64,000 nt of DNA from a virus: the IMG/VR virus record IMGVR_UViG_3300037851_000538, positions 20,368 through 84,367 of that record. One strand, given 5' to 3'. The notes beneath the pieces were generated by a model. The model was not told where the DNA came from. It saw only the letters and a program-made list of their open reading frames with translations, and searched no databases. Made by a program: the position numbers and the translations under genes. Positions 2 to 53,756 of the stretch are shown here, one piece after another (the stretch's first letter is position 1; each line of letters opens with the position of its first letter).

Positions 2-2239
2 AACCTGGCAGGGAGAATATCTCGTGCTGGTTCTTCGGCTTCTACGATTCCGGGTAGGGTAGTTGGTAAAAACATTGGCGAGGCCGCTAAAGAGAGCTTG
101 AGGCCGGCAAAACAGGAGCTTGAAGACTTAAGCCGGCAGGCCCAAGAAGAGCTGGACAATTTTACTCAGCAGGTTCGTAAGTCAATAAACGATTTGGGGT
201 CAGAGGCTAGAGATCAGATTAACGAGTTTGGGTCTCTTAGCGAGGACGCAGTCAGGGGGGCTGGCGATGTTGTTTCCAACGAAGTCGTTAGGCATCTTGT
301 GGGGTTTACCAAGCAGGTAGCTCCTGGAATGGCCGCTGGGGCGGTGTCTGGGGGTTTGGGCGGTTGGTCGCACGATGACCCTAGGCTTGGGGCTGGCCGA
401 GGTCTTATTGCAGGCGGTATTGGTGGTCTGGGTGGTAGGGCTTTGGGGCCCGGCATGGTTCGTTCCGCTATCGGCGGTGGACTTTTGGGAGGAGCAGCTG
501 GTACCTTCTTTGGGAAAGACAAGTCTGAAGTACAGGAAGCTCCTAAGGGTAAAAACATGTCATCCAAGAACAAGTACGCTGGCGTTACTTTAGACTGGTA
601 CGACGATGAAGGGGAAACTCTGAAGGCGGTGTTTCCTACGTTGAACGACGTCCCAGAGGTCATCAAGACGGCGTCTATCAGACCCAAGAGCTCTTTGTCT
701 TCTGAAGACTTTGCTCTCGTAATGATTGACGGTGGTACGGCGTTTCATAAGTACGCCTGCTATGATCCTGGTACTACAGCAATGTCCATGATCTACCTTG
801 CGGAGCATGGAGACAAGCTTCCAGAAGATGCTCAGAAGACAGCGTCGGCTAACATACTAACCGCCTGTGAAAAATACGGCCTTACGAAAGAGGCAATTAT
901 AGGCCCCGCTATGTCTTTAAGTTTTGCAGGCATTCCTGACGTAGTTGGGTATGTTTTGGGGAATTCGCATGGTAGGGAGGATTATCGTGCAGGCAGACAA
1001 AGACCTCACGGTGTAAGAGCAGTAGATGCGGCGGGGGGCTTAATAGTACCTGGGTACATTGGTTATCAGCTCGGGTACCGATCTGGTTATGACGAGCTTA
1101 AAGACCTAGAAAAGAAAAATCTTGAGAAGGACAATAGATTTTCGGGCTCTACGGAAGAGGACGCTCTAAGAGCGGTCGTTATGTCGGATCTTAGAGAAGG
1201 AAAAGCCGTAGGTGCTTCTAAGTCCCAGCAAAGAAAAGAGTACGAAGCGTTTAGTAAAAACCCAGAAACTTTGGGCGTGGATTCAGAAAAAACATCGAGC
1301 GCCTTTGTAGATGTTACCGGTAAGAGCCCTGCCTTTGTTATTAAGGCAGCCAGTCCTTCTGACCCAAACGACTACGCGGTGGTTCTTTCAGACGGTACGA
1401 GAAAATACCCTATCCATACGTGGGATATGGTGAAGACCGCTGAGGCCTACTTCAAAGAAAATTCCGTACGGATGGAGGCTCCGATACGTCGGCACTTTGC
1501 CGTAAAGCTGGCGTCTAAGGCGGAGTCAATGGGCTATCCTATTGACCCGGACATTAGGGTACGGGGGTCCAGTTCTTACGCCGATAGCGGGCGTCTTCGT
1601 TCGGCATTAGATATGCGTAAGCTATCTTTTTCCAAGAACAGCCCGGAGTCTGGTTTCCTGGATGAGCTGTTTGAGAAAAGGGCAGAAGTATCTCCGTTTG
1701 TTTACTCCGAGTGCCTTCGCAGGTTCGACTTGGAGAACGGGCTTGATCGTCATTGGGACGTGAACATTCCAGACCCTTGGGCGTCCACCTTTGGGATCAA
1801 GACCGCTTCGGTAGTTTGGGAAGACGGCGCGGATCGTGTTACGGAAGAGGAACTTAATAACCTCTCGTTGAATCATAGCGAGCTCAATCAAACAGCATTT
1901 ACTCCGGAGATGGTTAGAGAGTTTCAAAAAGATCCGGTTGGAGTGTTTCAGTCTCTCCCCTTGCCTCAGAAAAGAATGCTGGCTCGTTTGGCGGCTGACT
2001 GTGCCAATGGTGGGGAATCAGAGGGTGGTACCAAATCTGCTGGGGTTTTTGGTAAGGTTATGTCGAAGAGTCTGAGCCAGGGGGCAAAACCTAGGGGGAC
2101 GTTTTACGGGAGAACGGTTTCCGCGGACCCAGAGGTTCAGGCCTTTCTGAAGTCTCCTTATGTTGCCGGCGCCAAGCCCTCTGTTGCCAAGAGGCCGTCT
2201 TCTGATGTTTGGGCTATGCTTCATCCTCAAAAGGTCTAG
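2..2239 (+). CDS. Putative virion/head-associated modular protein (5'-truncated at window edge), with glycine-zipper segments and K-x-A/S junctions
   Basis: The frame is open from base 2 (NLAGRISRAG...). It contains GxxxG-rich segments (GAVSGGLGG, GGGLLGGAAG) and motifs TKQV, IKTAS, QKTAS, TKEA, EKTSS, KAAS, KTAE, KLAS, TKSA. A possible internal start lies at ATG ~557 (MSSKNKY). Confidence 0.6.
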   Translation, partial: NLAGRISRAGSSASTIPGRVVGKNIGEAAKESLRPAKQELEDLSRQAQEELDNFTQQVRKSINDLGSEARDQINEFGSLSEDAVRGAGDVVSNEVVRHLVGFTKQVAPGMAAGAVSGGLGGWSHDDPRLGAGRGLIAGGIGGLGGRALGPGMVRSAIGGGLLGGAAGTFFGKDKSEVQEAPKGKNMSSKNKYAGVTLDWYDDEGETLKAVFPTLNDVPEVIKTASIRPKSSLSSEDFALVMIDGGTAFHKYACYDPGTTAMSMIYLAEHGDKLPEDAQKTASANILTACEKYGLTKEAIIGPAMSLSFAGIPDVVGYVLGNSHGREDYRAGRQRPHGVRAVDAAGGLIVPGYIGYQLGYRSGYDELKDLEKKNLEKDNRFSGSTEEDALRAVVMSDLREGKAVGASKSQQRKEYEAFSKNPETLGVDSEKTSSAFVDVTGKSPAFVIKAASPSDPNDYAVVLSDGTRKYPIHTWDMVKTAEAYFKENSVRMEAPIRRHFAVKLASKAESMGYPIDPDIRVRGSSSYADSGRLRSALDMRKLSFSKNSPESGFLDELFEKRAEVSPFVYSECLRRFDLENGLDRHWDVNIPDPWASTFGIKTASVVWEDGADRVTEEELNNLSLNHSELNQTAFTPEMVREFQKDPVGVFQSLPLPQKRMLARLAADCANGGESEGGTKSAGVFGKVMSKSLSQGAKPRGTFYGRTVSADPEVQAFLKSPYVAGAKPSVAKRPSSDVWAMLHPQKV

Positions 2240-2244
2240 AAGTA

Positions 2245-3117
2245 ATGTCCTCGAATTTGAAATGGGGGGTAGATCTGACAACGCTCCCCGCCAAAGTCGC
2301 TTCGTCTAAAGAGCCCATTGTCCGGTTCTTTGGGTATCACGATGCCCATCCGGTGGCCTTGGTGATGAGTTTATTAGGGCAGTTCGACACCGACTGGGTT
2401 GATTGGGAGCCAGACACTCTAAGAAAAGAAATCCTAACCACGTTTGAGGCTCCTTCCATAAGCCCGCACAATTGGGAGAAGATACAGGCGGCCAGAACCC
2501 TGATGACCGCCTCTACCTATTGGAATGAGTGGCACGTCTTCGAGAAAATAAACCAGGCCCTTAACAACAACATCCCAGTGTTCGATATCTCTCAAAGGTG
2601 CACTGTAGCTCAGTTGATGGCTGGGGTAGACATAGCGTCTCAAATACGAGAAGAACCCTTTGATGAGGACGAGGTAGGTAGATATATAGCATGTTGCGCC
2701 CTTGACGAGTTTATTGTGTATCTTCCTCCGCCCATCGACTTTGCTCAGAAGTATTTGAGCCAGCCGATGTACCGATGCAAGATATGCGGAAACGTAGATA
2801 ACGACGACCTGGACGGTAGGTGTGATTTTTGCACAGCTCGGTTTCAAGACGAGCACCCACTTAACTTCAAGCCGTCTGTCCACGTTTCGGATTCTGCGGG
2901 GACCGAGGTGGAGCGGTTTTTAATGCGCGACCACCTCCCGTCCAAACTACGCTTCGACGAGGTTATCTCTCGTGGGGTCAATTCGGTTAAGCTTAGTGAC
3001 GAGTCTCCAGAAGACGTTCAGGCCTTAAAGCTGTTTGTTGCTCACAGCTACATGCAAATGCGAAGATCTCAGCTTGTGGAGCAGTTGGAGGAGATAAAAT
3101 CGTGGGTAGCCCATTAA
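2245..3117 (+). CDS. Hypothetical protein with CxxC...CxxC zinc ribbon
   Basis: ORF with ATG at 2245; CKIC...CDFC; N-terminal KVAS motif. Confidence 0.65.
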   Translation: MSSNLKWGVDLTTLPAKVASSKEPIVRFFGYHDAHPVALVMSLLGQFDTDWVDWEPDTLRKEILTTFEAPSISPHNWEKIQAARTLMTASTYWNEWHVFEKINQALNNNIPVFDISQRCTVAQLMAGVDIASQIREEPFDEDEVGRYIACCALDEFIVYLPPPIDFAQKYLSQPMYRCKICGNVDNDDLDGRCDFCTARFQDEHPLNFKPSVHVSDSAGTEVERFLMRDHLPSKLRFDEVISRGVNSVKLSDESPEDVQALKLFVAHSYMQMRRSQLVEQLEEIKSWVAH

Positions 3118-3833
3118 GCCAGGTGGTTCTCAGAGCTTTTGTGGACGAGATGCAGAGCATTGAAAAATCTGCGGGACCTATCAGCTACTTTAAGAACTGG
3201 GCGAACAAGCTTCCTCAAGAGATAGGTACCGCGGCCGACAGACTTATCCACCCCATTAGGGGGGTTAGAGAGGGGTGGAAAGAGCTTAGCGGAACTGCCC
3301 ACGCGGCTTCTTTATCTCCTGAGGAGAAGGCCAATCTAGTCTCTAGGGGTTCTGGACATCTTTTTCAGCCGTCTGTGCCCTTGTCCCAGGCCGCTAGGTC
3401 TCCAAACCGCGTTAGTTCTGTTGCCGAGGAGCTATCTCGTCGTGGATGGACGGGGCAGGGAAAGATCACCAAGTATCTTCCAGTGGGGCAAAAAGGACTT
3501 ACGGTAGGGCTTGGTGGCGGATTTGCAGTTCCCTCTGTGTATGAAGCGTACAAACAGGGCCCTGTAGGTCCTACAGGGGAAGGTGGATTAGCAGAGCGAG
3601 GTCTAGGAGAACTGGCCGGTAACGCTGCCTTCATCGCGGCCGGGAAGATGGGTATTGCCCCGGCCCTGGCAATGCATGCTTTGGGTTCTGGCGTGGCTGG
3701 GAAAGCTGGACGTGTTATAGACCGATTAAGAGGTGGCGCTTCGTTGCGTCAAGCCTTGTATGCCCCGTCTCCTGTAGAAGCTCAGGAGCAGATAGCGAAC
3801 ATCGCGGAGAACTATAGTTATGGCAATGCTTGA
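3102..3833 (+). CDS. Putative virion cargo protein with FxDE leader and glycine zippers
   Basis: Leader LRAFVDEMQSIEKSA followed by Gly/Ala-rich hydrophobic segments. Confidence 0.6.
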   Translation: MGSPLSQVVLRAFVDEMQSIEKSAGPISYFKNWANKLPQEIGTAADRLIHPIRGVREGWKELSGTAHAASLSPEEKANLVSRGSGHLFQPSVPLSQAARSPNRVSSVAEELSRRGWTGQGKITKYLPVGQKGLTVGLGGGFAVPSVYEAYKQGPVGPTGEGGLAERGLGELAGNAAFIAAGKMGIAPALAMHALGSGVAGKAGRVIDRLRGGASLRQALYAPSPVEAQEQIANIAENYSYGNA

Positions 3834-5796
3834 TGCATTGAACTTCGGGCCCAGCGGGGCTCTTAGGTTCTCTAGAAATACAGGACGCTCTTTAACCGGG
3901 GAAGGTCTTGGGGCCATAAGGTACCCATCCCCGTTTTTCGACATAGCCCAAACGTACCTGCCCACATCGTTCAAAACGATGCTCAGGTGGTGCCGTTACT
4001 ACTTTCTCACTAACCCCTTAATCAACGCTGTCTGCTATAAGATGGCGGAGTATCCCGTAACTGACCTGATATTCGATTCCAAGAGCACGCACGACAACGA
4101 GCGCTGGCGGGTATTCTTTAACGAGGTTTTACACTTTAAGAAGTTTGAAGTGGAAATGGGGTTAGACTACAATTGCTACGGTAATTCTTTTGTTAGCATC
4201 TATTTCCCATTTCATAAGATGCTGTCTTGCAAGAAGTGCGGACACGCTCGTGACGTTAGAAAGCAGAAGTACATATTCAGAGAGTATAAGTTCGTTGGAG
4301 AGTGCGAGCGCTGTAAGAGCTACGGTGAGTTCGATGTTAGGGACCATTACGTACAGTCCGCTAAGCAGATACGACTTATTAGGTGGAACCCTGAGTACAT
4401 CACTATAGAACACAACGAGGCCACGGAAGAGAGCCGCTACTACTACGTCATACCCCCCTCTCTGGCCAACGACGTTCGCATGGCCAAGCGCCACGTCATA
4501 GAGACTATTCCGCAGGCCTTTATTGAAGCCCTACGACAGAACAAGGCGCTTCTTTTTAGTCGAAGCAACATTTACCACATGGCCCGCCCCACAATCGCTC
4601 AGAAGGATCGCGGTTGGGGTATGCCGATGATTCTTCCTGTGCTCAAAGACACCTTCTACCTACAGGTACTTCGTAAGGCTCAGGAGGCTATCGCGATTGA
4701 GCATGTAGTTCCTTTGAGGCTCTTGTTCCCTCAAACGTCTTCCGCAAGTGCCGACGTTTACAGTTCCATCAATTTATCCCAATGGAGAGATAAGGTTGAG
4801 CAGGAGCTGATTCGTTGGAGGCTGGATAACAACTACATACCGATTCTTCCTGTCCCTATTGGTCAGCAGACTCTAGGTGGTGATGGTAGAGCTTTAATGC
4901 TGGCTCAAGAGTATCGTCAGTGGTCAGAGCACATTGTTTCTGGAATGGGAGCACCCGTTGAGTTCATCTTTGGTGGTCTTAGTTTTTCTGGGTCGAACGT
5001 GTCTTTGAGAATGCTGGAAAACCATTTTCTAGACGTTAAGTCCTTCCGCCTTCGTTTGGTTACCGAGTTCTTGATGCCTCAGATAGGCGCGTTTATGGGG
5101 TGGGAGCCTGTTCCGTGCCACTACAAGCGTTTTAGGATGGCGGACGACCTTCAGCGTAGTGCTCTGTTCCTTCAGTACAATCAGGCTGGGAAGATCTCCG
5201 ACCGGTCTCTGTTAGAGGACACTGATTGGGATTCTGAAAAGGAGATGGAGCTCATCGAGCTCGAGCGTCGAGCGGTTCTGGAAAGTCAGAGGAGGCAGGC
5301 TCTGTCGCAGGCGGCAATACAGGGCGAGTCTCAGCTCATCATGTCTAAGTATCAGACTAGGGCTCAAAAGGTTATGCAAGAGATGATGGCCCCGCCGCCG
5401 CCCCCACAAGAGATGCAGGCTACAGACCCGGGGGCGGTTCCCGCAGAAGCCAGCCCTGCCCCGACCATGGAAATACCTCCTGGTCCTTTGGAGGACCCAA
5501 GCCAGGCACAGAACCAAGACTCTATTCAGTCTCAACTTCAATCACAGATAGGTCAAGCTCCTGCAGGAGGGTATGACGTGATGATGCTGGCTAACAAAAT
5601 AGTTAGCTGGTTGAATCAACTTCCGGACCACGAAAAGGCCCGAGAGCTGTCTGCCATGCAGGCTAACAACCCGCATTTGTATAGCATCATACTTCCTATG
5701 CTTCAGGCGTCGTCAGGAGCTGAAAGAAGTTCGGCAGCCATGCCTCTTCCGGAACAAAAACCCCCTAGAAGGGGCCCGGAGTCTGCTTTGGTCTAA
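3820..5796 (+). CDS. Probable portal protein with inserted zinc ribbon and Pro/Gln-rich tail
   Basis: 658 aa. N-terminal 'RYYFLTNPLINAVCYKMAEYPV', 'DYNCYGNSFV', 'IRWNPEYI', 'IYHM...GWGMPMI' and 'IVSGMGAPVEFI' follow a portal-like layout; CKKC/CERC insert; structural gene context. Confidence 0.7.
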   Translation: MAMLDALNFGPSGALRFSRNTGRSLTGEGLGAIRYPSPFFDIAQTYLPTSFKTMLRWCRYYFLTNPLINAVCYKMAEYPVTDLIFDSKSTHDNERWRVFFNEVLHFKKFEVEMGLDYNCYGNSFVSIYFPFHKMLSCKKCGHARDVRKQKYIFREYKFVGECERCKSYGEFDVRDHYVQSAKQIRLIRWNPEYITIEHNEATEESRYYYVIPPSLANDVRMAKRHVIETIPQAFIEALRQNKALLFSRSNIYHMARPTIAQKDRGWGMPMILPVLKDTFYLQVLRKAQEAIAIEHVVPLRLLFPQTSSASADVYSSINLSQWRDKVEQELIRWRLDNNYIPILPVPIGQQTLGGDGRALMLAQEYRQWSEHIVSGMGAPVEFIFGGLSFSGSNVSLRMLENHFLDVKSFRLRLVTEFLMPQIGAFMGWEPVPCHYKRFRMADDLQRSALFLQYNQAGKISDRSLLEDTDWDSEKEMELIELERRAVLESQRRQALSQAAIQGESQLIMSKYQTRAQKVMQEMMAPPPPPQEMQATDPGAVPAEASPAPTMEIPPGPLEDPSQAQNQDSIQSQLQSQIGQAPAGGYDVMMLANKIVSWLNQLPDHEKARELSAMQANNPHLYSIILPMLQASSGAERSSAAMPLPEQKPPRRGPESALV

Positions 5797-6782: not shown

Positions 6783-6811
6783 TTGATGTGCGTTTCTTTC
6801 CGAAGTAGGAT
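6783..6811 (+). promoter_or_regulatory. Sigma70-like promoter upstream of the RNAP gene
   Basis: TTGATG-N17-TAGGAT. Confidence 0.4.
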
Positions 6812-6863
6812 TCGGTCAAAATGCTCTCTGCATAGGCACTTTCAGGAAATCCAGGAGTTAGCT

Positions 6864-14169: not shown

Positions 14170-16188
14170 ATGGCGAGCGCTTCTTTGTTTTTGGACCGTC
14201 CACTTCAATTTGAGGGAGAGGAAAAGCTCGCAGGGTCTTTGACTCGCCTCAGCGACAATGTCGAGATGTGGCCTCGGGAGATTACTCAAGAGGCTTATCG
14301 GCAGATCCCGTACATCAGTGACTTCGATATCAATGTCGTTCTGGACAAGGTTGACGAGCAGAAGGGTTTTGCTTTTGGATCCATCGAGGTCAAGGCGAAG
14401 TCCGAGATGACTATGGAGGAGCGGAAGGGCGGAGACCTTCCTCGAGTCCATGTTCCTATCGTCGTTAAAGACCAGATGCTCTATCCGCTCGACGTCTTTT
14501 TGAACGGAAAGTCCTACGCCTACCTTACTGAGCCCCGTCTACGGTCCGCGCTGTTCCGTCCAGAAACTATGGATGCTGCTCGGACTCGCCCGTACGACCC
14601 CTCGCTAGTCCACGACCTTCAACCGCCTATTAGGGCGGGTTATGGTGGTTTTGGAGCCGGAGGGGTGAAGACGGGGTCTGCGGCTTCAGACGAGCTGGAA
14701 CACCTTCCCATTCTCCCGATGCTTCAAGGTAGGGTTTTGGGAGACCACGTGACGCGTTTGAAGGTTGCGTGCCAAGACCCCAGTCTGCGGTCTCAGGTAT
14801 TGGGAGGCAGTTTAGGTGTTCGTGCTGCGTTCAATTCTGCTTTGGGCCTTAAAGAGACTTCTCAGGAGAAGTGGGCCAGTTCTATTAGAAACAGCGTGGT
14901 TCCTAAGGTAGTTCAGCTCAAGAAACACGGAAGTAATAGCCTCCTGCTCAAAACAGCGGATCCGGATTTCTACGCCCCGGAGATTGAGATCATTCCAGAG
15001 AGCCTGGCTAGGGATTTGGCCGGAGAAGAGGACATCTCTGGCATCATGGAGAGCGACGGTACTATGACCGTCAGTCCAGACACTCCCGTGAAGTCTACTT
15101 TGGAGGCTGAAGAGATTCGAGTTGCTGACTCCTTTGGCCTTTGGAAGGTTCAGGACCTCAGCGGAAACACTCTCATAGGGTGGGTTTTTCCTCAGCTTCT
15201 TTCTATGGACATGCAGCCTTTGCCGTTGAGCCTATTCAACAATGGGTCTCAACACGCTGTCCAAGAGCACGTAGCCGGGGAAATGGCTGGTAAGTCTACA
15301 GACCTACCAAAAGGACACCCTCAGGGTTACGGGTGTTTGTATTTTATTGATCACGGCACAGCTAAGGCCTTCGTTCCTATGCGAGTCACCTCTACCATGC
15401 GCGGGCCTGACGGTCTGATTAGGTATGTGGCCGAAGATGACATGGGCGCCCACTTCACGTTCTACTTCTCTGACGCGGTGAAAACCATTTTGCGCGTAGG
15501 GGGATCCGAGTACTGTATACCGTCTCAAGTTTCTTGGATGCCGTTAAGGGGAAAAACCGAGCTGGTCAATACCCCTGCGTACTTCTCAAAAGTAGCGTCG
15601 GATAGATTCTTGTCCAACAGGGCAGAGCTTGTCGGTGACGGGAACTTGTTTAGCTGGAGGGGTCCAGCTGTCTCCAAACTGGCCAGTGCGGACAGGGCGT
15701 TTTTGAATAGGGACGATGCCTTGTTTCTTGGAGTGTCTTTGGGGATTGACCCGTCATTTTGCAAGGAGGCTTTAGATAGAGCTTCTAAGGGAGAGCTTCT
15801 AAAGTTTGGAAGCGTACGGGTTATCACTCCGACATGGGAGAAGCTGGCGAAGGCCCACGAGTCCGTTAAGGCTGAATTGGCATCTATTCCTAGGCCTATT
15901 AGAAACTATTTCTTGGCTAAGGAAGCGGCTCTTCTGGACGATGCTCTTACTGCGGACAAGATACTGGGTCTTGGGTTTTTAACGGCAGAAAACATTTCTA
16001 CGTTCGTGGATATGATCCCCGCATTGGAAGCAGCCTCGTCAAAAGTGGCTGAGATGCTGGTCGCCGCGCGTATCGGGTTGAGAGATGTTCCGGAGGTGGC
16101 TCTTGAGCGTATGTTGGCGGCCTTGGAGGATGTGATCCAGGGATTGAAGAGTCTCAAGCAGAAAGAAACGTCCAGGTTCTCTATTTAA
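14170..16188 (+). CDS. Putative head structural protein with K-x-A/S junctions
   Basis: 672-aa ORF with GGAG SD; EEKLA, KTGS, EKWAS, KVAS, KLAS, EKLA, KEAA. Confidence 0.6.
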   Translation: MASASLFLDRPLQFEGEEKLAGSLTRLSDNVEMWPREITQEAYRQIPYISDFDINVVLDKVDEQKGFAFGSIEVKAKSEMTMEERKGGDLPRVHVPIVVKDQMLYPLDVFLNGKSYAYLTEPRLRSALFRPETMDAARTRPYDPSLVHDLQPPIRAGYGGFGAGGVKTGSAASDELEHLPILPMLQGRVLGDHVTRLKVACQDPSLRSQVLGGSLGVRAAFNSALGLKETSQEKWASSIRNSVVPKVVQLKKHGSNSLLLKTADPDFYAPEIEIIPESLARDLAGEEDISGIMESDGTMTVSPDTPVKSTLEAEEIRVADSFGLWKVQDLSGNTLIGWVFPQLLSMDMQPLPLSLFNNGSQHAVQEHVAGEMAGKSTDLPKGHPQGYGCLYFIDHGTAKAFVPMRVTSTMRGPDGLIRYVAEDDMGAHFTFYFSDAVKTILRVGGSEYCIPSQVSWMPLRGKTELVNTPAYFSKVASDRFLSNRAELVGDGNLFSWRGPAVSKLASADRAFLNRDDALFLGVSLGIDPSFCKEALDRASKGELLKFGSVRVITPTWEKLAKAHESVKAELASIPRPIRNYFLAKEAALLDDALTADKILGLGFLTAENISTFVDMIPALEAASSKVAEMLVAARIGLRDVPEVALERMLAALEDVIQGLKSLKQKETSRFSI

Positions 16189-17585: not shown

Positions 17586-20500
17586 ATGGGCCTCCTCTTG
17601 TTCTCTAAGCAGGCTTCAAGGATATCTGAGGCCGCATCCTCTTCAAAAAAGAACTCGTCGTATTTAGAAGAGGGCTATATTGGTCCGGGACTTCCTAAAA
17701 AGAAGGTATCGGACCTCCCTAAAGTAGACCTACCCGAGCGTTGGGAATTTTCTGCCCATCCGCACGACGCTAAAAAAAGCGGCCTACACGTAGACGTTCG
17801 TCTGGGAGACCCCGTATCTGGCATAGCTCATTCATTCGTTATTCCTAAGACAGACAAGCTTCCTGAACCCGGGTCTAATGTCCGGGTCATTCCAACCTTC
17901 GATCACAAGATACCGTACATGGATTTTACCGGTACGATATCCACTCCGTACGGTAAAGGAGAAGTCATTCCTGGTCGAAGAGAGGTAGCAGAGGTCTATC
18001 ATTCCACTCCAGAAAAGGACCCAGGCACCAAGGTCAGATTCAACCTATACTCAGGCTCTCATCCAGAAGAATTCGCTATACGAAAAGATGAGAGAGGCCG
18101 TTGGTATCTTCACAATAAGACCCAGACCAGAGAAAGACGGCCGGATATACCGGACTACAAGCCCAAGTACAAAGAGGTATCTGTAGATTCAATAGACCCT
18201 TCTGACGAATCCCAAGCCATGATGCCCAAGCTAGACGGAGCTCATGGGATAATAGATTTGAAGGCTGGTAGGTCTCCGAGAGTGTATTCTTACCGAGTGG
18301 GGGTCAAGACTCCTACAGGACTAATTGAGCACACCCATAAGATACCAGAACTTCTAAAGACCAAAGTCCCTAAAGAGCTAGACGGAACTATTATACGGGC
18401 CGAGATATTGGGCAGAGACAAAGACGGTAAGGCCATTCCTGCTCAAGAGATTGGAGGACTACTTAACTCCAAAGTTTGGGAGAGCCGAAAGAAGCAAGAG
18501 CAGTCGGGGGTAAAACTGTGGGCTTTTCCATTCGACGTTGTGAAGCATAAAGGAAAAGACGTTTCCCATCTGCCTTTTGAGGACAAGGTCAAAATACTCA
18601 AAAAGGTAGAAGAGTCCTTTGGGCCTGTAGAACTTCCTGAGATTGTTTCTGGAACTTTAGAGAAGATAGAGCTTTTGAACAAGATTCGTTCAAAGGCGCA
18701 TCCTTTAACTGAAGAGGGTGTAGTTCTTATAGACCCTAAAAAGCCCTCTGCTCCTATAAAGGCCAAGTTCTCTCCTGACTTCGATGTGTTCGTTAGGGAT
18801 ATACACCCGGCCATCAGCGGAAAGACTGGAGAGAAGCATGATAGGGCTGGGTCAATCAGTTATTCCTGGACTCCTAATGGCCCGATAGTTGGCCAGCTTG
18901 GTGGTTTCTCTCATGGAGAAGCCAGAGAGATGATTAAGAACCCGGACAGGTACATTGGCCGAGTCGCAAAGGTGAAGGCTATGAAAGTGTTTAAGTCGGA
19001 GTCCGGAGATCCGGGAGCTTTGTTTCAGCCTCGGTTCAAAGAGTGGCACTTGGACAAGGGCGACATCGAAAAGAGCTCAGCGGCTTCTATGCTGACAAAG
19101 GTTTCAGAGATGAAGAAAAAGGCAGATAACTCCAGTCTGAAAAAAGACGTGTCTCTCTACGACCATCAGAAAAGAGCTATTGAAAAGGTAAAGAGCCACG
19201 ATGGCAATCTTATCCTTAGCCACGGAACTGGTTCTGGAAAGACCCTTACTGCGATAGCTGCCTTTGAATCTCTTCGTGAAGACGGAAAAGCCACTAAGGC
19301 CCTGGTTGTTACTCCAGCTTCTTTGAGGGCTAACTTTATAGACAACGGGGTCAGGAAGTTTACTACTTCTAGGGCATCTATCATTGGAAATAGCGAGGAA
19401 GCTAAAAAGGGCATAGCTCGTTCTTTAGACGATCCCGATCCTGGTTCTAGGTACCATGTCATCTCCTACGAGATGTTTTCCAAAGACCCTGAAAAGGCGA
19501 TCAAGGCTACTGGGGCAGATACGGTCATTTATGACGAGCTTCACCGAATTCGTAACGATCAGGGGGTGACATACAAGACCATTAAGGACGCCAGGAAGCA
19601 CCACAGGAACTTCATAGGTCTTACTGGGTCTTTGATGAACAACACTCCTGCGGATTTGGTCCCTTTAGTTGACGCTATGACGGATGGCAATCACCGTCTT
19701 GGGACCAAGGCCCGTTTCGAGACTCGTTTTATTTCTGAGTCTAAGGGGGGTAAGAAGATAAACAAACCGCAGGTGGTGAAAGCCCTGCTCAACCCATTTG
19801 TAGACCATTTTGAAACCAAAGACCTCTCCGACGCCAAAATGCCTAAAAAAGTGGTGGAGGAAGTCAAAGTGATGATGAGCCCCTATCAAGAGGAGCTATA
19901 TCGTTACGTGGTCAACAAGATGGATCCTATTACGGCCATCAAGTTCCGTTTGGGAACTACTAAGCTGAAGACGCACGATATCAGCAACATCTTCTCTCAG
20001 ATAATTCAAGCCCGGCAGGTATCTAACTCTCCGCACACCATAGACCTGAGTCTTCCTATCCAGGATGCTCCAGACAAATCCCCCAAGGTAAAGAAATTGC
20101 TAGATGATGTAGAAGAGCATCTCAAAGAGACTAGCGATGGTCAGGTGGTTATTCACTCTAACCTTATTAAGGGTGGCGTGGATGTTCTATCAGAGGGTCT
20201 TAAGCAGAGGAACATTCCCTTCTCGACCTTTGTAGGTAAAGGGCAGCCGGGAGTAACAGAGGACAAGAGGCAGAAGGGGGTAGAGGAATTCAATTCTGGG
20301 AAGAAGCGGGTGATAGTCATATCCGCTGCGGGAGGGGAGGGGTTAGACCTTAGAAACGCTACTATGTTTGCTGGGCTCGACGGCCATTTCAACCCAGAGA
20401 AAGTTAATCAGGCCGAGTCTCGGGCCGTACGAGCTGGCGGACTTTCTCATAGGCCTGAAGAAGACCGGAGAGTAATAGTAAAGAGATACGTGAGCGTGGT

Positions 20501-25223: not shown

Positions 25224-25287
25224 TCTAATCTCCACATGTTAGCGTTTGAATCAATCTTTTGTGGGTCATCAACAATGCGAGGCCGAA

Positions 25288-35134: not shown

Positions 35135-35761
35135 ATGAACTCTTTTTTGGCGAATCTTTACGGTACTGGTCAGGACATCGGCACTAACGCTGAGGTTGAG
35201 AAGCTCGCAGAGGCTCAGGTGATTGACGAGCAGCTTCGGAGTGAGGGCATCGACGTCAATAGCCTCAGCGGCGAGGACATCTTGAAGTGCGCCTACGCCC
35301 TTTTTGGCGACGAGAGTGCTCTCGTCAAGTCGGCTCAAGAAGAGGGCGAAGAGGAAGAAGAGGGCGAGGAGTCAGAAGAGAAGGAAGAGAGCGCCGAGGA
35401 GAAGGTGGCTGAGGCGGACTTCCTTGGTCGTGTGATGGCTCACGCCTACTATCAAGAGAAGAACCTGATCGAGAAGCAGGCTGGCATCAAGGATTCCTTA
35501 AAGAGCATCCCTGGGCACATAAAGAGCCTTCCGGGGAAGTTGGGGGATAAGGCCCGAAGAATGCGCATGTCTCATCAGGATGCTTGGTTGGAGAGCCAGG
35601 CCTTGGGGTCAGGGCGTCTTAAGGCTCACATGAAGGGTTTAGCTAACGTAGCGAAGGAACATCCGAAGACCGTGGCAGGTCTTGCGGGAGGAGCGGCATT
35701 GGCAGGGGGCGGTGGGTACGCTGTTAGCCGGAAGAAGAAGAAGAACACTCAGCAGAGCTAG
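35135..35761 (+). CDS. Acidic head core/scaffold-like protein with C-terminal Gly-zipper anchor
   Basis: GAGGAG SD; poly-Glu tract; EKLA, KCA, KSA, EKVA, EKQA; ends HPKTVAGLAGGAALAGGGGYAVSRKKKK. Confidence 0.6.
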   Translation: MNSFLANLYGTGQDIGTNAEVEKLAEAQVIDEQLRSEGIDVNSLSGEDILKCAYALFGDESALVKSAQEEGEEEEEGEESEEKEESAEEKVAEADFLGRVMAHAYYQEKNLIEKQAGIKDSLKSIPGHIKSLPGKLGDKARRMRMSHQDAWLESQALGSGRLKAHMKGLANVAKEHPKTVAGLAGGAALAGGGGYAVSRKKKKNTQQS

Positions 35762-35763
35762 TC

Positions 35764-36048
35764 ATGATCAAGACGCTGGCTTCTTTCATAGACGAGCTGC
35801 AAAAGATTTCGGCAGCTACCAACGTGGCTTCGGTAATGTCCGGGTCATTAGGTAGGGCCAAGTCTGTGCAGAACGTGATGGGGAAGCCAGCGTTCTCTAA
35901 GCCCAACGTACAAACCATGCGCTTTGGGTCTAGGGATATGACCGCGAAGCCCACTAACTATTCGATTGTTAACACTGAAGCGCCAACGGCGGCGTATGAT
36001 GCGGCAGCTACGAGTAAATCGGTGCCACCGCCGCCTGTGAGAACGTAA
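35764..36048 (+). CDS. Small protein with FxDEL-K leader
   Basis: MIKTLASFIDELQKISA. Confidence 0.6.
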   Translation: MIKTLASFIDELQKISAATNVASVMSGSLGRAKSVQNVMGKPAFSKPNVQTMRFGSRDMTAKPTNYSIVNTEAPTAAYDAAATSKSVPPPPVRT

Positions 36049-36060: not shown

Positions 36061-37953
36061 ATGGCAGGTGACCGCACTTCGGTGTACGCGATGGTCCATC
36101 AGGTTCTGGCGGATTCCAAGAAGAAGCTCGAGGAAGGCCAGACCAAGGTGGCGTCGTCTACACAACGCTCGGCTGCTTCTCATACGGTGAGTGGCAGACG
36201 TAGCGGATTTTCAAAGATCGCCGACGCTTGTGATCGTCTTGCCGAGTGTATTCACTTGGTGAACGACGACCGCTCGCCTCGAGAGAAGTTGGCTGAGTAC
36301 GCAGCCATCCACCAAGCCCTGACGAAGCGGGCCTTTGACGTTGGGAACGATGCTCCTAAGGAGCCGTCGTTGTCTGCGTACCAAGGTACCGGCAACAAGG
36401 GTGAGCATCAGGATCAGGAAGCTGAGGGTTCTAGCCAGCCCCCGGTTTCGGTTCCGCTGGACGATGGAAGCCCCAACCCAGGTGGCCCCGACAGTGCGCT
36501 TTTGGCCGTCCCGGCTATGACTCCTGGAGAGTCTTTGGATGCTGGGGAGAGTGGCGAGGCCACAGACGCGCATCAGTCCCCCGATGAAGTGACTCCGAAC
36601 GAGAGTCCTCAGCCTCTTGATGCGGCAAACGCTCTGGAAACTAATCAAGACATGATGATGCCAGAGCAGCCCGAGGACGTTCTTAAGCAGTCTGCCGCAA
36701 TGCGCAAGCACGCGTATATGCGTGCTTTGTCCAAGCAAGCCGATTTGAGCTCTGGTAATCTTTTGAACGTTCGTGAAACGGGTGCGGCAACTCCTGGAGA
36801 GCTACAGGGAGAGCGGGCAGGCAGAAGAGTGGGAGCAGTCAGCGGATTAGCGGCTGGAGCATTGGGAGGAGCGGCCCTTGGTGCTGGAGTTCCTTTGGCA
36901 GCCAGGGACATATCTCCTATGTTTCTGACGGGATTACATCCTGAGGAGGCAAGGAATGCGGCTCAACTTCTTAAGCGTGCTCCCTTCAAGACTTTAGCAG
37001 CTTTGGGTAGCGTTGGAGGCCTACTTGCCGGAGGTGCGCTGGGAACTAGTTTGGGTAGAGGCATAGGCGGAAATCTTGGTTTAACGGTCGGGTCAATTAA
37101 AGGACCTTCTCAATTTGACAAAACATCGAGTTTGAAGAAGGCGTCTTCTGTCCGTAAGCTCCAAATCATGGCCAAGATTGCTGAAGATGCTCTTAACCCG
37201 GCTCAAATCGAGGCCGGTACGGAGCCCGAGCTTCAGTCGGCAGATGGGATTCCGAATCAGCTTTCTCAGGGCTCTGAGGTTGGGGAGCTGACTCCTCGGG
37301 AAACAGCTCCCAATGTTGGTGAAGGCTCTGGTCGAGAGCTCTTGAGCAGCATTGAGGCGGCTATCAACGCTACGAAGTCTGACGCTAAGGGCCAGAACAA
37401 GGGTCCTTTGTCTGAGGTTTTGACTGAGCCGGCAATGTCTGAGGCTCATGATGAGACGTTGGCCGAGTCGTTGGACAATACGGACAGTGCGGGCGTGAAG
37501 ATCTCTTCGGCGCAAGTCAGCGCGGCTCGAGAGCTTCTTCGCCGGTACATCAACTCGGCTCCTGGCAACGCTATGAAGGTGGCTGCCATCTTGAAGATGT
37601 CGGCAGACGGTGCGGATGCCGCGGACATTGCTCCGGGTGGTGGAGGAGCTCCCATGCCGACGGGTGGAGAGATGACCTCTTACCCCACTGATGCCGAAGT
37701 CGCTCCTATGGAGGAGGAGGGTGTCGGTGAGGTTTCGGAAGAGGCATTAGCTGCCGCGTCTCAGGGAGTGACACCGGAAGAGGTTGAACAGGCGCAACAG
37801 CTCTTGGCCATGCAAGAGCTTGCTGGTGGTATGGAAGGCCAGCAAGAGGCTCCGGCAGCAGGGGCAGAAAACATGGAAGTCACCAGCCAAATGGGCGGTA
37901 TGGGAATGTCATCCCAACCGACACCGTCACCTTGGTCCGGTGGTGGGATGTAA
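36061..37953 (+). CDS. Acidic, disordered head core/scaffold-like protein with inserted Gly-zipper module
   Basis: AAGGAG SD; KVAS, KIA, EKLA, KRA, KQSA, KHA, KQA, KTSS, KKAS, KISS, KVAA, KMSA. Confidence 0.65.
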   Translation: MAGDRTSVYAMVHQVLADSKKKLEEGQTKVASSTQRSAASHTVSGRRSGFSKIADACDRLAECIHLVNDDRSPREKLAEYAAIHQALTKRAFDVGNDAPKEPSLSAYQGTGNKGEHQDQEAEGSSQPPVSVPLDDGSPNPGGPDSALLAVPAMTPGESLDAGESGEATDAHQSPDEVTPNESPQPLDAANALETNQDMMMPEQPEDVLKQSAAMRKHAYMRALSKQADLSSGNLLNVRETGAATPGELQGERAGRRVGAVSGLAAGALGGAALGAGVPLAARDISPMFLTGLHPEEARNAAQLLKRAPFKTLAALGSVGGLLAGGALGTSLGRGIGGNLGLTVGSIKGPSQFDKTSSLKKASSVRKLQIMAKIAEDALNPAQIEAGTEPELQSADGIPNQLSQGSEVGELTPRETAPNVGEGSGRELLSSIEAAINATKSDAKGQNKGPLSEVLTEPAMSEAHDETLAESLDNTDSAGVKISSAQVSAARELLRRYINSAPGNAMKVAAILKMSADGADAADIAPGGGGAPMPTGGEMTSYPTDAEVAPMEEEGVGEVSEEALAAASQGVTPEEVEQAQQLLAMQELAGGMEGQQEAPAAGAENMEVTSQMGGMGMSSQPTPSPWSGGGM

Positions 37954-38864: not shown

Positions 38865-39989
38865 ATGAGTATGGTTCAGGCTTCCATCGAGATGTTCAAT
38901 CAGCGTCTCGACTCGCAAGAAGGCAAGGACAAGTTGGCTGAGCTGGGCGGTTCGTGGATTCGCGACCGTCTGCGTGAAGTGTCGTTCATGCGGCACTTGC
39001 TTCCTCCGGAGCAGGTTACGCGGGCTGACTGTCAGCGTTCGGTGAATCACGACACGCTGGTCAAGATCGTTGACATCGAGCCGCAAAGCCGCGCGATGGC
39101 GATCACGTTCCGCGACCAGCCCACGGCCCGGTTCATCCGCGCCCCGAAGGCTGAGATTCCGTTCTTCACGATCTCATCGGAGAAGTTCGAGAAGACGGAG
39201 CAGGAGCTCCTCGCCTACGAAATGCCCATCACCAAGGTCATCGAAGACAACACGGTGAAGGACATTCAGGAGATCGAGGACCGCGAGGGTCTTCGTCACC
39301 TCGAGGCCGGCGTCCAGGCGATGCAGACAGAGGTCAACACGACTACGACGGTTGCGTACAACGCTACCAATATTCGTGCTCTGAATGCCAATGCCCAGGT
39401 CGTTTCGGTTGTGAAGGGCGAGCTCGCTCTTGCGGCTGACGGTACGGACTTTGTGGTTCGTCCGGTGCAGCGTCCTGACTTCGTGAATCTCTTCAAGATC
39501 CTCGACGGCCGGCGTCTCCGTTCGGAGCGCGTTCTGATCACCGAAGTGGACCACGACGACGTTCTTCAGTGGACGGTCGAGGACTTTGGCGATCGCATCC
39601 AGTCCGAGACGGTTGTTGACGGCTACAAGTACAACACGCTGCTCGGCCGCAAGGTTGTTCGTACGGTGAAGACGGACCTTCTCCGCCCGGGCAACATCTT
39701 CGTCTTCACGGCGCCGCAGTTCTTCGGGAAGTTCTACATCCTGAACAACACGAAGTTCTACATCGACAAGATCGCGAACGTCATCACGTGGCAGTCGTGG
39801 GAAGACATCGGCATCGGCCTCATCAACGTGTCGGCTTGGGCGAAGCTCGAGCTCTACCGCGGCTCGGTTCGTCCGACTGCGTATGACACCGGCTGGACTG
39901 CGAAGCTTCCTGTGTCCGAGGAAGATCTGGGCGCAGAGAACAATCGGGTTGACCGCGGGCTGCACTACCCGAGTGTTCAGCAGTATTAG
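38865..39989 (+). CDS. Major capsid protein (HK97-fold predicted)
   Basis: 374 aa, TAAGGAG SD, extreme high-expression codon bias; layout 'IRDRLREVSFMRHLLP...IPFFTISS..F......L......I....DIQEIEDR' and 'LLGRKVVRT....L.PGNIFVF'. Confidence 0.8.
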   Translation: MSMVQASIEMFNQRLDSQEGKDKLAELGGSWIRDRLREVSFMRHLLPPEQVTRADCQRSVNHDTLVKIVDIEPQSRAMAITFRDQPTARFIRAPKAEIPFFTISSEKFEKTEQELLAYEMPITKVIEDNTVKDIQEIEDREGLRHLEAGVQAMQTEVNTTTTVAYNATNIRALNANAQVVSVVKGELALAADGTDFVVRPVQRPDFVNLFKILDGRRLRSERVLITEVDHDDVLQWTVEDFGDRIQSETVVDGYKYNTLLGRKVVRTVKTDLLRPGNIFVFTAPQFFGKFYILNNTKFYIDKIANVITWQSWEDIGIGLINVSAWAKLELYRGSVRPTAYDTGWTAKLPVSEEDLGAENNRVDRGLHYPSVQQY

Positions 39990-42794: not shown

Positions 42795-43847
42795 ATGCGA
42801 AGAGAAACTTTGGTAGGCTTTTACGACGAAATTACTTCCATTCACGATCTAGAGAAAACAGCTATCGACCCGGTCACTATGCTTCTCGGTGGGGCTGCTT
42901 CTCATATTGGAACTAATCTTGTCGCTAGGAAGCTCCACCATTCTCCGCTCTTAACTTCTGCACGTAGTAAAGGGCTGGGTAGAGGCATACGAGAAGCTAT
43001 AGAGGGAAAACCTAGGGGCTTCAAAAGTAGGGCCACTGAACTCTTGGCGGGTCCGGACTTCACGGCGTCTGAAGATATTGGCCGTCTGTTGGGTAGCGGT
43101 TTGAGAAATAAAAGTAGAGGACAGCAACACAGAGCGTTGAAAAAACTGCGTAAGGCAACGGCTATGGCTCCAGAAGATGTGCGGTCCCTTCCATTTTTTG
43201 AAGATTTGGTTCCTGGTATAAATAGGGCTTTAGAAGCCCCACTTCCTAGAACCGGGAGAATCGAACAACTGTCGCGTGCTCAGAGAGCTGCTCCTTATCT
43301 CGCTGCTGCTCCTGCCGCGATCTTGGAGCCCGGCGCAGCAGTACATATGGGAGTTAATAAGCTAAGGTCCTTGGCCGCAAATTCACCTTTAGGGAAAAAG
43401 TTTGCAAAAAACTCTTTGATAGCCGGAGCTCGAGAATCTACCTTGGCGGATAGGGTTATGGGGGCTCTTCCAGGCGAGGCAAAGACAGACGTCGTCCGTG
43501 CGGGTCTATCTCCAAAGAAAAGAAGCAGGATGAGCGACTTAGCTACGGAGGTGTTTTTATCTCCTGCTTCTCAAGCACCAAAAACTATTTCAAGGGGGGT
43601 AGCGGATTCTTTATCTAATCCTGCAAACGTTAGGCCTATTACTCGGTTCGTGTCGGCTTTACACAACGTTGCGGGTCCTAAGCCTGGTAATGTGGCATCT
43701 CAAGCTCTGTCGAGTATTTCTGAGGCATCTAAAGGTCTGACCGGCACTGTGAGGGATTTGAGCAATCGTGCTTCTGGGGTGATTGGTGCGAAGACCAGAC
43801 CCACTCCTACCTTAATGGGCCGACAGCCCCGTCCGATCCCAGGATAG
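42795..43847 (+). CDS. Putative virion cargo protein with FxDE leader
   Basis: MRRETLVGFYDEITSIHDLEKTA then a basic, amphipathic body. Confidence 0.6.
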   Translation: MRRETLVGFYDEITSIHDLEKTAIDPVTMLLGGAASHIGTNLVARKLHHSPLLTSARSKGLGRGIREAIEGKPRGFKSRATELLAGPDFTASEDIGRLLGSGLRNKSRGQQHRALKKLRKATAMAPEDVRSLPFFEDLVPGINRALEAPLPRTGRIEQLSRAQRAAPYLAAAPAAILEPGAAVHMGVNKLRSLAANSPLGKKFAKNSLIAGARESTLADRVMGALPGEAKTDVVRAGLSPKKRSRMSDLATEVFLSPASQAPKTISRGVADSLSNPANVRPITRFVSALHNVAGPKPGNVASQALSSISEASKGLTGTVRDLSNRASGVIGAKTRPTPTLMGRQPRPIPG

Positions 43848-46933: not shown

Positions 46934-47304
46934 GAATTTCTCTAGAGTCTTTTTTCGACGAGCTGACTAAGATTGCTGAAGAGTCCCCTAACGCCTCTAA
47001 TCAGCAACAAGAGTGGCGTCCTCCAAACTCTGTAGAGATTAAGGAGCTTTTGCGCCACGCTGCTCTGGCCGGTCTTGGTTCTGGTATTGGGGCTGGTTTA
47101 GGTTTTGTTGTTGCCCCTAAAGTCATACCTAAGCTTTACGAGAAGCTGGGGCCGGAAAAATTCACGATGCTTATGGGCGTTGGTGGTTCTGTTTCTGGAA
47201 TCCTATCGGACTTAGCTTTTAGGAAGGCATACCAGAACATTTCCGCGGCTGGACAAGCTGAAGAGGAGCGCAGGCGTGTCGAGAGAGAGCGTCAGCGTCT
47301 GTAA
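46930..47304 (+). CDS. Small protein with FxDEL-K leader and Gly zipper
   Basis: MRISLESFFDELTKIA; AGLGSGIGAGLG. Confidence 0.6.
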   Translation: MRISLESFFDELTKIAEESPNASNQQQEWRPPNSVEIKELLRHAALAGLGSGIGAGLGFVVAPKVIPKLYEKLGPEKFTMLMGVGGSVSGILSDLAFRKAYQNISAAGQAEEERRRVERERQRL

Positions 47305-52475: not shown

Positions 52476-52527
52476 CTCGTACTGGGACCGTCGGCAATGC
52501 CGCCGGGCTGAGTGAAAGGAGACAACG

Positions 52528-53250: not shown

Positions 53251-53259
53251 GGAAGTACT

Positions 53260-53532
53260 ATGACATTCAACGATGTTACTACTGCGGCATTCTTTGATGA
53301 GCTGGAAAAGATTGGACACCTCAACAAAGAAGCCATTAGCTTCACTCAGGGCGGCAAGCTGATGAAGGCCTTGAAGGCTGACGTAGCTAAGCCCATTGCC
53401 CAAATGCCTGCTGGACCTATGGCGGCAGGGCCTGCGGCAGCTGCGGTCAATCCGGCTAAGGCTCGCATGCAGGCGCGTTTCGGTGCGGCTATGGCCCCTA
53501 AGACCGTCGGTGGGCGCGGGCTTCAGTTCTAA
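53260..53532 (+). CDS. Small protein with FxDEL-K leader
   Basis: TAAFFDELEKIGHLNKEA. Confidence 0.6.
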   Translation: MTFNDVTTAAFFDELEKIGHLNKEAISFTQGGKLMKALKADVAKPIAQMPAGPMAAGPAAAAVNPAKARMQARFGAAMAPKTVGGRGLQF

Positions 53533-53756
53533 TGGACATTCTTCGCCTCAGCTACTGTGCCCAAGTGCTTTCCAAGCACGCAGCTAATGTCCCGGGCATT
53601 CCAGGGCTGACCGGTGAAGACAACGCCCACATGCTGACTGAGCACCCTCACGGAACCGAAGGACGTCTCTTGCGCAGGCAGAGGGTAAGAAACGTCTTAA
53701 AAAAGGTTGAGGGTCCTCGAGCTTACGCTCCTCGAGTGGGTAAAGTAAGTCCCTGA
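53532..53756 (+). CDS. Small hypothetical protein
   Basis: TAATG overlap; SKHAA motif. Confidence 0.5.
   Translation: MDILRLSYCAQVLSKHAANVPGIPGLTGEDNAHMLTEHPHGTEGRLLRRQRVRNVLKKVEGPRAYAPRVGKVSP

Follow-up and report, generated by a model that had tools for sequence, protein, structure and literature searches.

In phage T4, the scaffold core protein gp22 and the internal proteins IPI-III, which carry capsid-targeting leaders, are substrates of the prohead protease gp21. Knowledge of prohead proteases comes from a few model phages. Excerpts of PMC5694885 describe the T4 enzyme as cutting after Glu in the motif L/I-x-E and the enzymes of phiKZ, 201phi2-1, and SPN3US as also cutting after Glu, and an excerpt of PMC9024508 describes the same for P1 (E120/S121). 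Here we analyze a 64-kb stretch of viral DNA (the window; positions 20,368 to 84,367 of IMG/VR record IMGVR_UViG_3300037851_000538, the final 64 kb of an 84-kb contig), in which head-module proteins are rich in the short motif K-x-A-S (x, or a dot in patterns, is any residue) and in which the open reading frame (ORF) starting at nucleotide 28957 encodes a putative prohead protease. An earlier reading of the same DNA, the original prediction, had proposed that this protease cuts head-region polyproteins at K-x-A/S junctions. We consider it likely, from motif statistics and a structural model, that K-x-A-S is the recognition motif of the phage's own prohead serine protease and that the proteins carrying it are processed scaffold and cargo. 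The fixed Lys and Ala of the motif differ from the cut-after-Glu motifs of T4, phiKZ, SPN3US, and P1 in the excerpts of PMC5694885 and PMC9024508, in agreement with the claim of a specificity unlike those of T4 and phiKZ. Genes are named below by their start coordinates in the window.

A K-x-A-S motif is enriched in head-module proteins

The gene set comprised 52 plus-strand ORFs (19,572 residues in total), and all long ORFs of the window lie on that strand. The pattern on which the original prediction rested, [ETN]K.[AS][SA], was indeed enriched, with 17 occurrences versus 5.7 in shuffled controls (z 4.8). The excess lay wholly in the 15 proteins that had been listed as carriers (15 vs 3.0); the unlisted proteins before 53756 had 2 vs 2.0 and the genes beyond 54 kb had 0 vs 0.7. 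This division into listed and unlisted proteins was post hoc, and an unbiased scan of gapped three-residue patterns, run without a prior pattern, was therefore added. Among the 3,142 patterns scored, out of ~48,000 possible, K.AS ranked first (34 vs 8.89 expected, Poisson P 1.2e-10), and L.K.A was the runner-up (32 vs 9.65 expected). K.AS was the single raised arrangement among the 12 one-gap arrangements of K, A, and S; the remaining 11 occurred 4-17 times in the window (8.9 expected) and 45-97 times when pooled with relatives (76.9 expected). The codons of the sites are mixed (AAG 20 and AAA 14, all four GCN, both TCN and AGY), and the sequences flanking the 34 window sites vary. Because the codons are diverse and the flanks differ, K-x-A-S is a short protein-level motif and not a repeat or a DNA signal. 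The three minus-strand frames held 8, 8, and 11 occurrences versus 5.7, 4.4, and 6.2 expected, respectively, a mild excess at most. An excess devoid of function, arising from composition, helical low complexity, paralogous repeats, or a DNA-level signal, would find some support in contexts that look paralogous (residue 502 of ORF2 and residue 584 of 14170) and in the A/S/K-rich character of the proteins, but the enrichment of just one arrangement in 12, the differing flanks, the varied codons, and the recurrence of the excess in phages whose capsid proteins are at most 24% identical make this highly improbable. Accounts by DNA-level signal, paralogous repeats, or composition were rejected on the site flanks, the codons, and the arrangement counts. 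A two-component mixture model of K.A contexts put 72% of them in the motif class and flagged sites in the capsid protein and the helicase; it was non-discriminating and was dropped, and strict K.AS was kept for counting.

Pooled over the window and 29 related loci, K-x-A-S occurs 452 times versus 85.8 expected. The Lys position is strict in this pool, Arg being absent from the enriched residues there, as is the Ala position, where Ser is raised 1.9-fold only. At the last position Ser is enriched 5.3-fold, followed by Glu (2.8) and Ala (2.3). Thr, Val, Leu, or Ile in the middle is enriched 8-15-fold, whereas middle Gly, Asp, and Pro are close to expectation (0.7-1.4-fold vs 5.3-fold for the whole motif). 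Glu precedes the Lys in 138 of the 452 sites, with Leu, Met, or Phe one position earlier, and Ala follows the Ser in 135. These frequencies point to the motif K-[T/V/L/I]-A-S, usually in the fuller context [L/M/F]-E-K-x-A-S-[A/V/I]. The degenerate A/S and S/A positions first proposed were an overstatement: Ala is strict, and Ser is preferred last, with Glu and Ala next. The K.SA forms that had been included are near expectation in the window (11 vs 8.9), and the ligase/helicase junction claimed for 17586 was built on such an unsupported variant (KPSA, KSSA); the sole canonical site of that protein is an N-terminal KQAS at residue 8.

Five head-module proteins, 28957, 25246, ORF2, 14170, and 36061, carry 10, 6, 5, 3, and 2 sites, respectively, together 26 K-x-A-S versus 2.55 expected. 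Eight proteins have a single site (2209, 16200, 17586, 22285, 44093, 45018, 47276, and 58284), and some of these must be chance. The portal, RNA polymerase, terminase, capsid protein, and sheath have 0 sites versus 1.71 expected, and the 13 genes at 54-64 kb have 1 versus 1.01, which bears out the statement that the motif is not conspicuous in the sheath, the terminase, or the 54-64 kb genes. The remaining 29 window proteins have 7 versus 3.62 expected, and 20 minus-strand ORFs upstream in the same genome have 1 versus 1.99. The proposed number of about 15 motif-bearing proteins held in part: eight of the 15 match [ETN]K.[AS][SA] and eight contain strict K.AS, the rest in each case lacking the respective form. 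Seven listed proteins are free of K.AS (3102, 26816, 27100, 35135, 42774, 46930, and 53260), and six of these have an N-terminal K-x-A leader instead; the exception, 27100, has the looser forms EKAAA and EKTSA only.

The 528-residue protein encoded after the terminase gene (25246..26832, +) has six K-x-A-S (0.39 expected) plus five K-x-A-A sites, and cutting at every K.A[SA] would yield pieces of 17-139 residues; its homolog in Salmonella phage Arash, gp220, has five sites. Judging from this sequence pattern, it is likely a protein of the scaffold or core that is chopped into small fragments. The 630-residue product of 36061..37953 (+) is acidic (isoelectric point 4.7) and scaffold-like, with K-x-A-S at residues 29 and 359, and the 208-residue product of 35135..35761 (+) has five K-x-A sites (EKLAE, EKVAE, etc.), none of them strict K-x-A-S. 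ORF2 (2..2239, +) begins upstream of the window and has 768 residues in full; its five K-x-A-S (0.46 expected) are at residues 222, 279, 448, 502, and 600 in the window reading. The 672-residue product of 14170..16188 (+) has K-x-A-S at residues 234, 474, and 503 (3 vs 0.28) and an N-terminal EEKLAG at residue 19. Pfam and PHROGs gave no match for the protease domain of 28957 or for ORF2, 3102, 14170, 25246, 26816, 35135, or 36061, and at most a weak sub-threshold Gly-zipper match for 27100. To take all carriers for cargo, as had been done, was too broad, since the small pieces of 25246 and the acidity of 36061 make these two look more like degraded scaffold or core; acidity is common in scaffolds that are removed from the head.

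The N-terminal domain of 28957 resembles prohead proteases

The 28957 gene joins a protease-like domain to a variable string of modules and to a C-terminal domain that is conserved. Its N-terminal ~245-residue domain is, by its predicted structure, a putative protease of the T4 gp21/herpesvirus assemblin fold, interrupted by an intein. The N-extein (28957..29487, +; residues 1-177 of the 2031-residue ORF) has HH-x-NKD at residue 118 and S-M-G at residue 175. A LAGLIDADG intein of 390 residues (29488..30657, +; residues 178-567; Pfam LAGLIDADG_3, Hom_end_hint, and Intein_splicing) is inserted right behind the S-M-G, where the catalytic Ser is expected, and the C-extein core (30658..30876, +) ends with IGADKTAKMM-C-K-L-G-S. 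Residues 1-177 and 568 to ~640 form one conserved domain: intein-free homologs align over ~245 residues, and natural homologs free of the intein read SMG-CRVPYD without interruption. Relatives are free of an intein or, as L024, L041, L054, and several database homologs, carry inteins at a different place in this gene. Residues H82, H118, H119, and S175, along with N121, K122, M176, and G177, are invariant in all 20 aligned sequences.

An AlphaFold2 (AF2) model made with 20 sequences has a predicted local distance difference test (pLDDT) score of 80-95 over the protease core. T4 gp21 (5jbl_B) matched this model with a VIA Z of 8.6 (root mean square deviation 2.9, 132 of 164 residues aligned), the next match having a Z of 5.7, and the proteases of varicella-zoster virus, pseudorabies virus (PrV), herpes simplex virus, and human cytomegalovirus gave Z values of 4.2-5.7. 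With Foldseek, the match to T4 gp21 (5jbl) had a probability of 0.93 and an E of 0.05. BFVD returned 94 matches at E ≤ 0.001, many of them named prohead protease, phage G gp19 being the nearest named one (E 4e-13). By tblastn, phage G gp19 is 33% identical over the core (E 6e-18), and matches were also obtained to the "prohead protease" gp77 of Rhodococcus phage E3 (E 1e-5) and to "capsid maturation protease" genes of Gordonia phages (E 2e-7 to 2e-4), annotations that are themselves predicted. The gene order, large terminase (TerL, 23135), protease (28957), and capsid protein (38865), is matched in Arash gp220-gp226. The identification of 28957 as the head protease is thus upheld, in that its N terminus has a predicted prohead-protease fold and some of its homologs are so annotated.

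Motif sites lie at module borders in the 28957 protein

The extension of the protease gene (30940..34782, +) holds ten K-x-A-S versus 1.06 expected, at residues 662, 1022, 1050, 1109, 1502, 1507, 1673, 1731, 1910, and 1939. Ahead of these, at the end of the core, K-L-G-S (residue 635, nucleotides 30859-30870, +) occupies the position equivalent to the herpesvirus release site. Among 109 homologs, the tetrapeptide after the G[AS]DK anchor is KLAS in 31, KLGS in 27, KLAQ in 23, and KLAH in 5, and this post-core site fits K.[AG][SQHA] in 90 of the 109; the window reads KLGS. At the corresponding position the proteases of Arash, Vibrio phage D69, and phage G read [V/I]-L-x-K-V-A-[S/N]. At the opposite end of the core, the 28957 protease has K-V-A-G at residue 30, and in all four lineages a K-x-A lies 27-43 residues from the protease N terminus; this stretch precedes the folded core and is modeled with low confidence.

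Two effector-type domains, InPase and DUF5661, are joined in the 28957 polypeptide, with a sub-threshold Gly-zipper match in addition. The DUF5661 module (32128..32259, +; residues 1058-1101; PF18905, E 7e-13) is flanked by KPAS at 1050 and KEAS at 1109; in four relatives it sits in other genes, where it is followed by KEAS in L008_13359. The InPase module, of pyrophosphatase fold (33487..33963, +; residues ~1511-1669; PF18823, E 4.5e-37; AF2 pLDDT 80-95; pyrophosphatases by Foldseek, E 5e-4), is preceded by KVAS at 1502 and KTAS at 1507 and followed by KVAS at 1673, and it ends at K[VLIE]AS in five of nine homologs. The placement of motifs on both sides of the DUF5661-like and InPase-like modules had been correctly noted. 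Modules shift between genes while their flanking sites are kept.

The conserved C-terminal domain (residues ~1758-1935) and a helical tail (residues ~1948-2026) are encoded at 34228..35034 (+) and have an AF2 pLDDT of ~90. The flanks of the domain contain KTAS 1731 and KIAA 1738 on one side and KGAS 1939 on the other. The domain is common to the protease genes of relatives (29 BLAST matches), its sites are aligned in 15 of 25 and 14 of 23 homologs, and the module frequently starts at a site in relatives. A single Foldseek search gave no fold match for its ~180 residues (window 34228-34761). This domain may anchor the polyprotein in the prohead. Two domains are confident in a model of residues 1001-2031, InPase (~1511-1669) and the C-terminal domain (~1758-1935); a K.AS lies no more than 30 residues outside each of the four borders (chance ~0.002), consistent with the proposed position of motifs at domain boundaries. 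Seven of the nine sites in this model overlap segments with pLDDT < 50 (P ~0.046). Within two ortholog alignments, of only five and four alignable sequences, motif columns are more often identical than their flanks (0.49 vs 0.27 and 0.50 vs 0.29). When the borders of the fusion protein were projected crudely onto the best 120 homologs listed, a site was found within 15 residues of the protease end in 38 of 120, after InPase in 47 of 114, and before InPase in 24 of 114; the distances of this projection are loose, and the G[AS]DK anchor gives the clearer picture.

N-terminal leaders with K-x-A in small head proteins

A K.A occurs at residues 5-35 in 17 of the 38 proteins before 53756, versus a shuffle mean of 5.9, and 17 was reached in none of 500 shuffles. 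A second pattern, F.DE[LMIV], is found 7 times in the window versus 0.59 and 30 versus 4.4 times when pooled in relatives, 24 of the pooled 30 being within the first 40 residues. Five small proteins open with F-x-D-E-[L/M/I]-x-x-I, followed by K-x-A or a near variant: 3102 (F-V-D-E-M-Q-S-I-E-K-S-A-G; 3138..3185, +), the 94-residue 35764 (F-I-D-E-L-Q-K-I-S-A; 35785..35832, +), 42774 (F-Y-D-E-I...L-E-K-T-A; 42819..42866, +), the 124-residue 46930 (F-F-D-E-L-T-K-I-A; 46951..46998, +), and the 90-residue 53260 (F-F-D-E-L-E-K-I-G...N-K-E-A; 53290..53337, +). The fusion of LigD-PE (a weak match), ATP-ligase, and SNF2-helicase domains identified with Pfam (17586..21383, +) starts with the 11-residue leader MGLLLFS-KQAS, its site being at residue 8. 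The major capsid protein has a conserved K-L-A-E at residue 23 (38931..38942, +); EGK[DE]K[ILVT]AE is present in all 11 distinct capsid-protein N termini listed, and the capsid proteins of Arash and Vibrio D69 have K-E-A-G at residue 27. On the sequence conservation, K-L-A-E is possibly a propeptide cut or else a matter of structural conservation.

Restriction to head-internal proteins and position in N-terminal leaders would also fit a targeting signal, and N-terminal capsid-targeting sequences are described for T4 and P1 in an excerpt of PMC9024508. The motif could then be a docking signal that is not cut and that recruits proteins into the prohead by binding the protease groove, the scaffold, or the inner capsid surface. 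For such a signal one copy per protein would suffice, yet there are 6-10 copies per protein, on both sides of modules and right after the protease core, and the dense spacing in the scaffold-like proteins resembles degradative processing. We regard docking as unlikely.

The motif follows one branch of the protease family

A search with the capsid protein gave 276 related viral contigs, and 80 of these were retained; the relatives are ~180-210 kb. A search of viral contigs with 25246 gave no relative, and its orthologs came by way of the capsid-protein loci. All 29 related loci of at least 15 kb share the K.AS excess (8-26 vs 1.9-4.0; P 7e-3 to 7e-17), and a few of them are near-duplicates. Among orthologs, K.AS is raised in the protease gene (105 vs 10.5), the 25246 family (66 vs 5.4), the 36061 family (67 vs 12.8), the 35135 family (16 vs 2.5), and unassigned variable proteins (141 vs 30.5); the corresponding values for the capsid protein, terminase, and sheath are 0 vs 2.3, 1 vs 1.8, and 2 vs 3.3, respectively.

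The same pattern extends to isolated phages. Salmonella phage Arash has a capsid protein of 24% identity, and in the regions examined of this phage L.K.A ranks first (31 vs 6.8) and K.AS occurs 17 times versus 5.75; the sites cluster in gp220, gp223, and gp225, which adjoin the protease homolog gp222. Vibrio phage D69 has 20 K.AS versus 3.95. In the examined head region of Bacillus phage G, K.AS ranks first (12 vs 2.42), and the sites are in gp4, gp7, gp11, gp12, gp14 (the portal), and gp19 (the protease homolog). Gordonia phage Pupper, with a more distant protease homolog, shows no K.AS excess (3 vs 1.17). On the basis of the raised counts in Arash, D69, and phage G and their absence in Pupper, we conclude that the motif goes with a single branch of the protease family, in phages of Gram-negative as well as Gram-positive hosts. 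Pupper gene 94 (L086 14767-18015), annotated as a capsid maturation protease, is a 1082-residue fusion, and the top patterns of that head region are Asp-rich. As this fusion comes without the excess, long protease fusions exist outside the K-x-A-S branch.

A search of a 5.8-billion-protein database with an intein-free protease domain as the query, confined to longer proteins, returned 1,693 proteins at E ≤ 1e-10. The best 120 of these 1,693 contain 466 K.AS versus 52.9 expected, the reversed pattern occurring 91 times. None of the best 120 is named a protease by any source; most contain InPase, and some contain DUF5661, NUDIX, GNAT, SET, or inteins.

Cleavage at these sites by a host enzyme or some other phage protease, and not by the 28957 domain, has a precedent in Staphylococcus phage 80alpha, which reportedly relies on a host protease. 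We hold this to be very unlikely here: the motif tracks the protease clade over the hosts of the Salmonella and Vibrio phages and of phage G and is absent in the distant Pupper, the 28957 protease has conserved sites at both ends of its core, and Pfam and PHROG scans of the window revealed no further head protease.

Other genes of the window

Family scans placed the ligase and SNF2 helicase fusion at 17586 (+), TerL at 23135 (+), the 2031-residue ORF with intein, DUF5661, a weak Gly-zipper match, and InPase at 28957 (+), the major capsid protein at 38865 (+), and the tail sheath at 48081 (+). The portal (3820..5796, +) is 31% identical to the Arash gp204 portal (E 3e-89) and has 0 K-x-A-S. The same scans identified a single-chain beta-beta' RNA polymerase (6783-13049, +), one ORF of 2088 residues that unites the beta-like and beta'-like parts and has 0 K-x-A-S (1.13 expected); its counterparts in Arash are separate genes, gp206 and gp216. 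RNA polymerase beta homologs start with the motif at residue 3 in Arash gp206 (M-P-K-S-A-S; L083 12094-16671) and in Vibrio D69 (M-P-K-K-A-S; L084 8640-13223), a start that the window polymerase does not have, and a small Vibrio protein (L084 22341) starts with M-F-K-S-A-S. An HNH endonuclease-like gene (41538-42344) lies amid structural genes directly downstream of the capsid protein block. Beyond 54 kb, a protein with a ParB N-terminal domain (54930-55790) and an SLT lytic transglycosylase (61432-62133) are both free of the motif.

Discussion

We favor K-x-A-S as the recognition motif of a prohead protease because it is specific to certain genes, conserved, tracks the protease clade, and has sites placed as for cleavage. 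After assembly of the prohead, the protease would release itself at the K-L-[A/G]-S behind its core. It would remove N-terminal leaders of ~8-30 residues with K-x-A at their end, commonly F-x-D-E-L-x-K-I-A, from enzymes and from numerous small head proteins, chop the scaffold- or core-like 25246, 35135, and 36061 into short pieces, and separate the modules of the polyprotein (DUF5661, the Gly-zipper region, and InPase). Some of the products would be retained in the head and pass into the host together with the DNA. By analogy with herpesvirus assemblin, our preferred guess for the scissile bond is Ala|Ser (K-x-A|S); a cut after Lys (K|x-A-S) is just as possible.

Several observations weigh against this interpretation. 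Its whole basis is sequence statistics and predicted structure. Chance alone would give about nine of the 34 sites in the window, and single sites such as those of 58284 and 47276 prove nothing; the looser K.AE and K.AA forms overlap with what helices rich in Glu, Lys, Ala, and Leu produce. KLAS at residue 1910 is inside a high-confidence part of the model, within the C-terminal domain. The position of single sites is patchily conserved: across the sites of the 25246 family, the share of five orthologs with an aligned K.A ranges over 0-80%. Pfam gave no relevant family at E ≤ 1 for any of 20 members of the protease-domain family, a profile search of the PDB gave ERp29 at E 0.099 only, and Foldseek against the PDB gave nothing at E ≤ 0.001 for the model; the family is too diverged for the sequence models of Pfam and the PDB. 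Finally, a virion preparation of Arash lists, in an excerpt of PMC10585845, 116 proteins including RNA polymerase subunits, helicase gp217, and gp220-gp225. Coverage of the putative substrates in that table is near-complete, and the number of 116 proteins suggests a crude preparation; the table neither supports nor excludes cleavage. For the packaging of enzymes, the detection of these Arash proteins is indirect support.

A bolder and doubtful extension is that the protease gene serves as a cargo-loading cassette and that the Ala-Ser cut is old and shared with assemblin, the Glu rule of T4 and phiKZ being derived. A domain placed between the protease head and a C-terminal domain binding capsid or scaffold, and flanked by K-x-A-S, would be carried into the prohead and freed there. 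Such a cassette would explain extensions of ~300 to 1800 residues that swap InPase, DUF5661, NUDIX, GNAT, and SET.

Literature searches found the K-x-A-S motif in no phage paper among the matches listed, and the prohead-protease motifs in the excerpts returned were of the Glu type only; the sites of phage G may be published. The abstract of a phage G capsid study (J Mol Biol 2020) is said to report that gp27 is processed. If recognition of K-x-A-S by the prohead protease is true, the mature head proteome of this clade would be predictable from sequence alone, the clade comprising 1,693 fusion proteins (E ≤ 1e-10), at least 276 viral contigs, Arash, Vibrio phages D69, D148, and D181, and the 497-kb phage G. 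Such recognition would further show enzymes being loaded into capsids by riding on the protease gene, give a concrete link between phage and herpesvirus maturation in the Ala-Ser cut, and provide a compact leader-plus-site tag for packaging foreign proteins in phage heads.

The window protease shares with T4 gp21 its predicted fold (5jbl, Z 8.6), and small internal proteins have short leaders in both systems. The logic of assembling, cutting, and packaging would also be common to the two, as would a scaffold cut at many sites and the presence of enzymes inside the head. Unlike gp21, it heads fusions of 549-2031 residues with cargo modules, and it has no match to gp21 at the sequence level. The closest named relative, the candidate prohead protease gp19 of phage G, has a 33% identical core with LEKVAS at residue 248 and LLKIAS at residue 274 of 300, but it is a stand-alone protein of 300 residues with no cargo train. 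Like phiKZ gp175 and SPN3US gp245, as portrayed in excerpts of PMC5694885 and PMC10052503, the window protease would process many head proteins at a short motif and release itself by C-terminal self-cleavage, and the phiKZ group likewise has an RNA polymerase in the virion together with a large mass of ejection proteins; the motif of those enzymes is A/S/G-x-E, with the cut after Glu. In the SPN3US data excerpted there, nine proteins are cut at 14 sites, nearly all of them removing N-terminal propeptides, whereas the window sites also lie between internal modules.

Herpesvirus assemblin (the pUL26 family) has a related fold and a similar layout, an N-terminal protease fused to a scaffold-type part with a release site just behind the domain. 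Its sites, x-x-Ala followed by Ser or Thr (PrV YLQA-T and VQA-S in an excerpt of PMC4498786), resemble the A-S of the motif; they differ in that the residue three positions ahead of the cut is hydrophobic instead of Lys and in numbering 2-3 per virus. The polyvalent proteins of phages and conjugative elements (Iyer et al. 2017, PMC5512222) are multi-domain proteins with InPase (PF18823) and DUF5661 (PF18905) that, in an excerpt of that report, are predicted to be packaged and delivered, with proteolytic release of their domains proposed. That proposal invokes an embedded zincin-like metallopeptidase (MPTase), whereas the window has a fused, putative capsid maturation protease and a defined linker motif.

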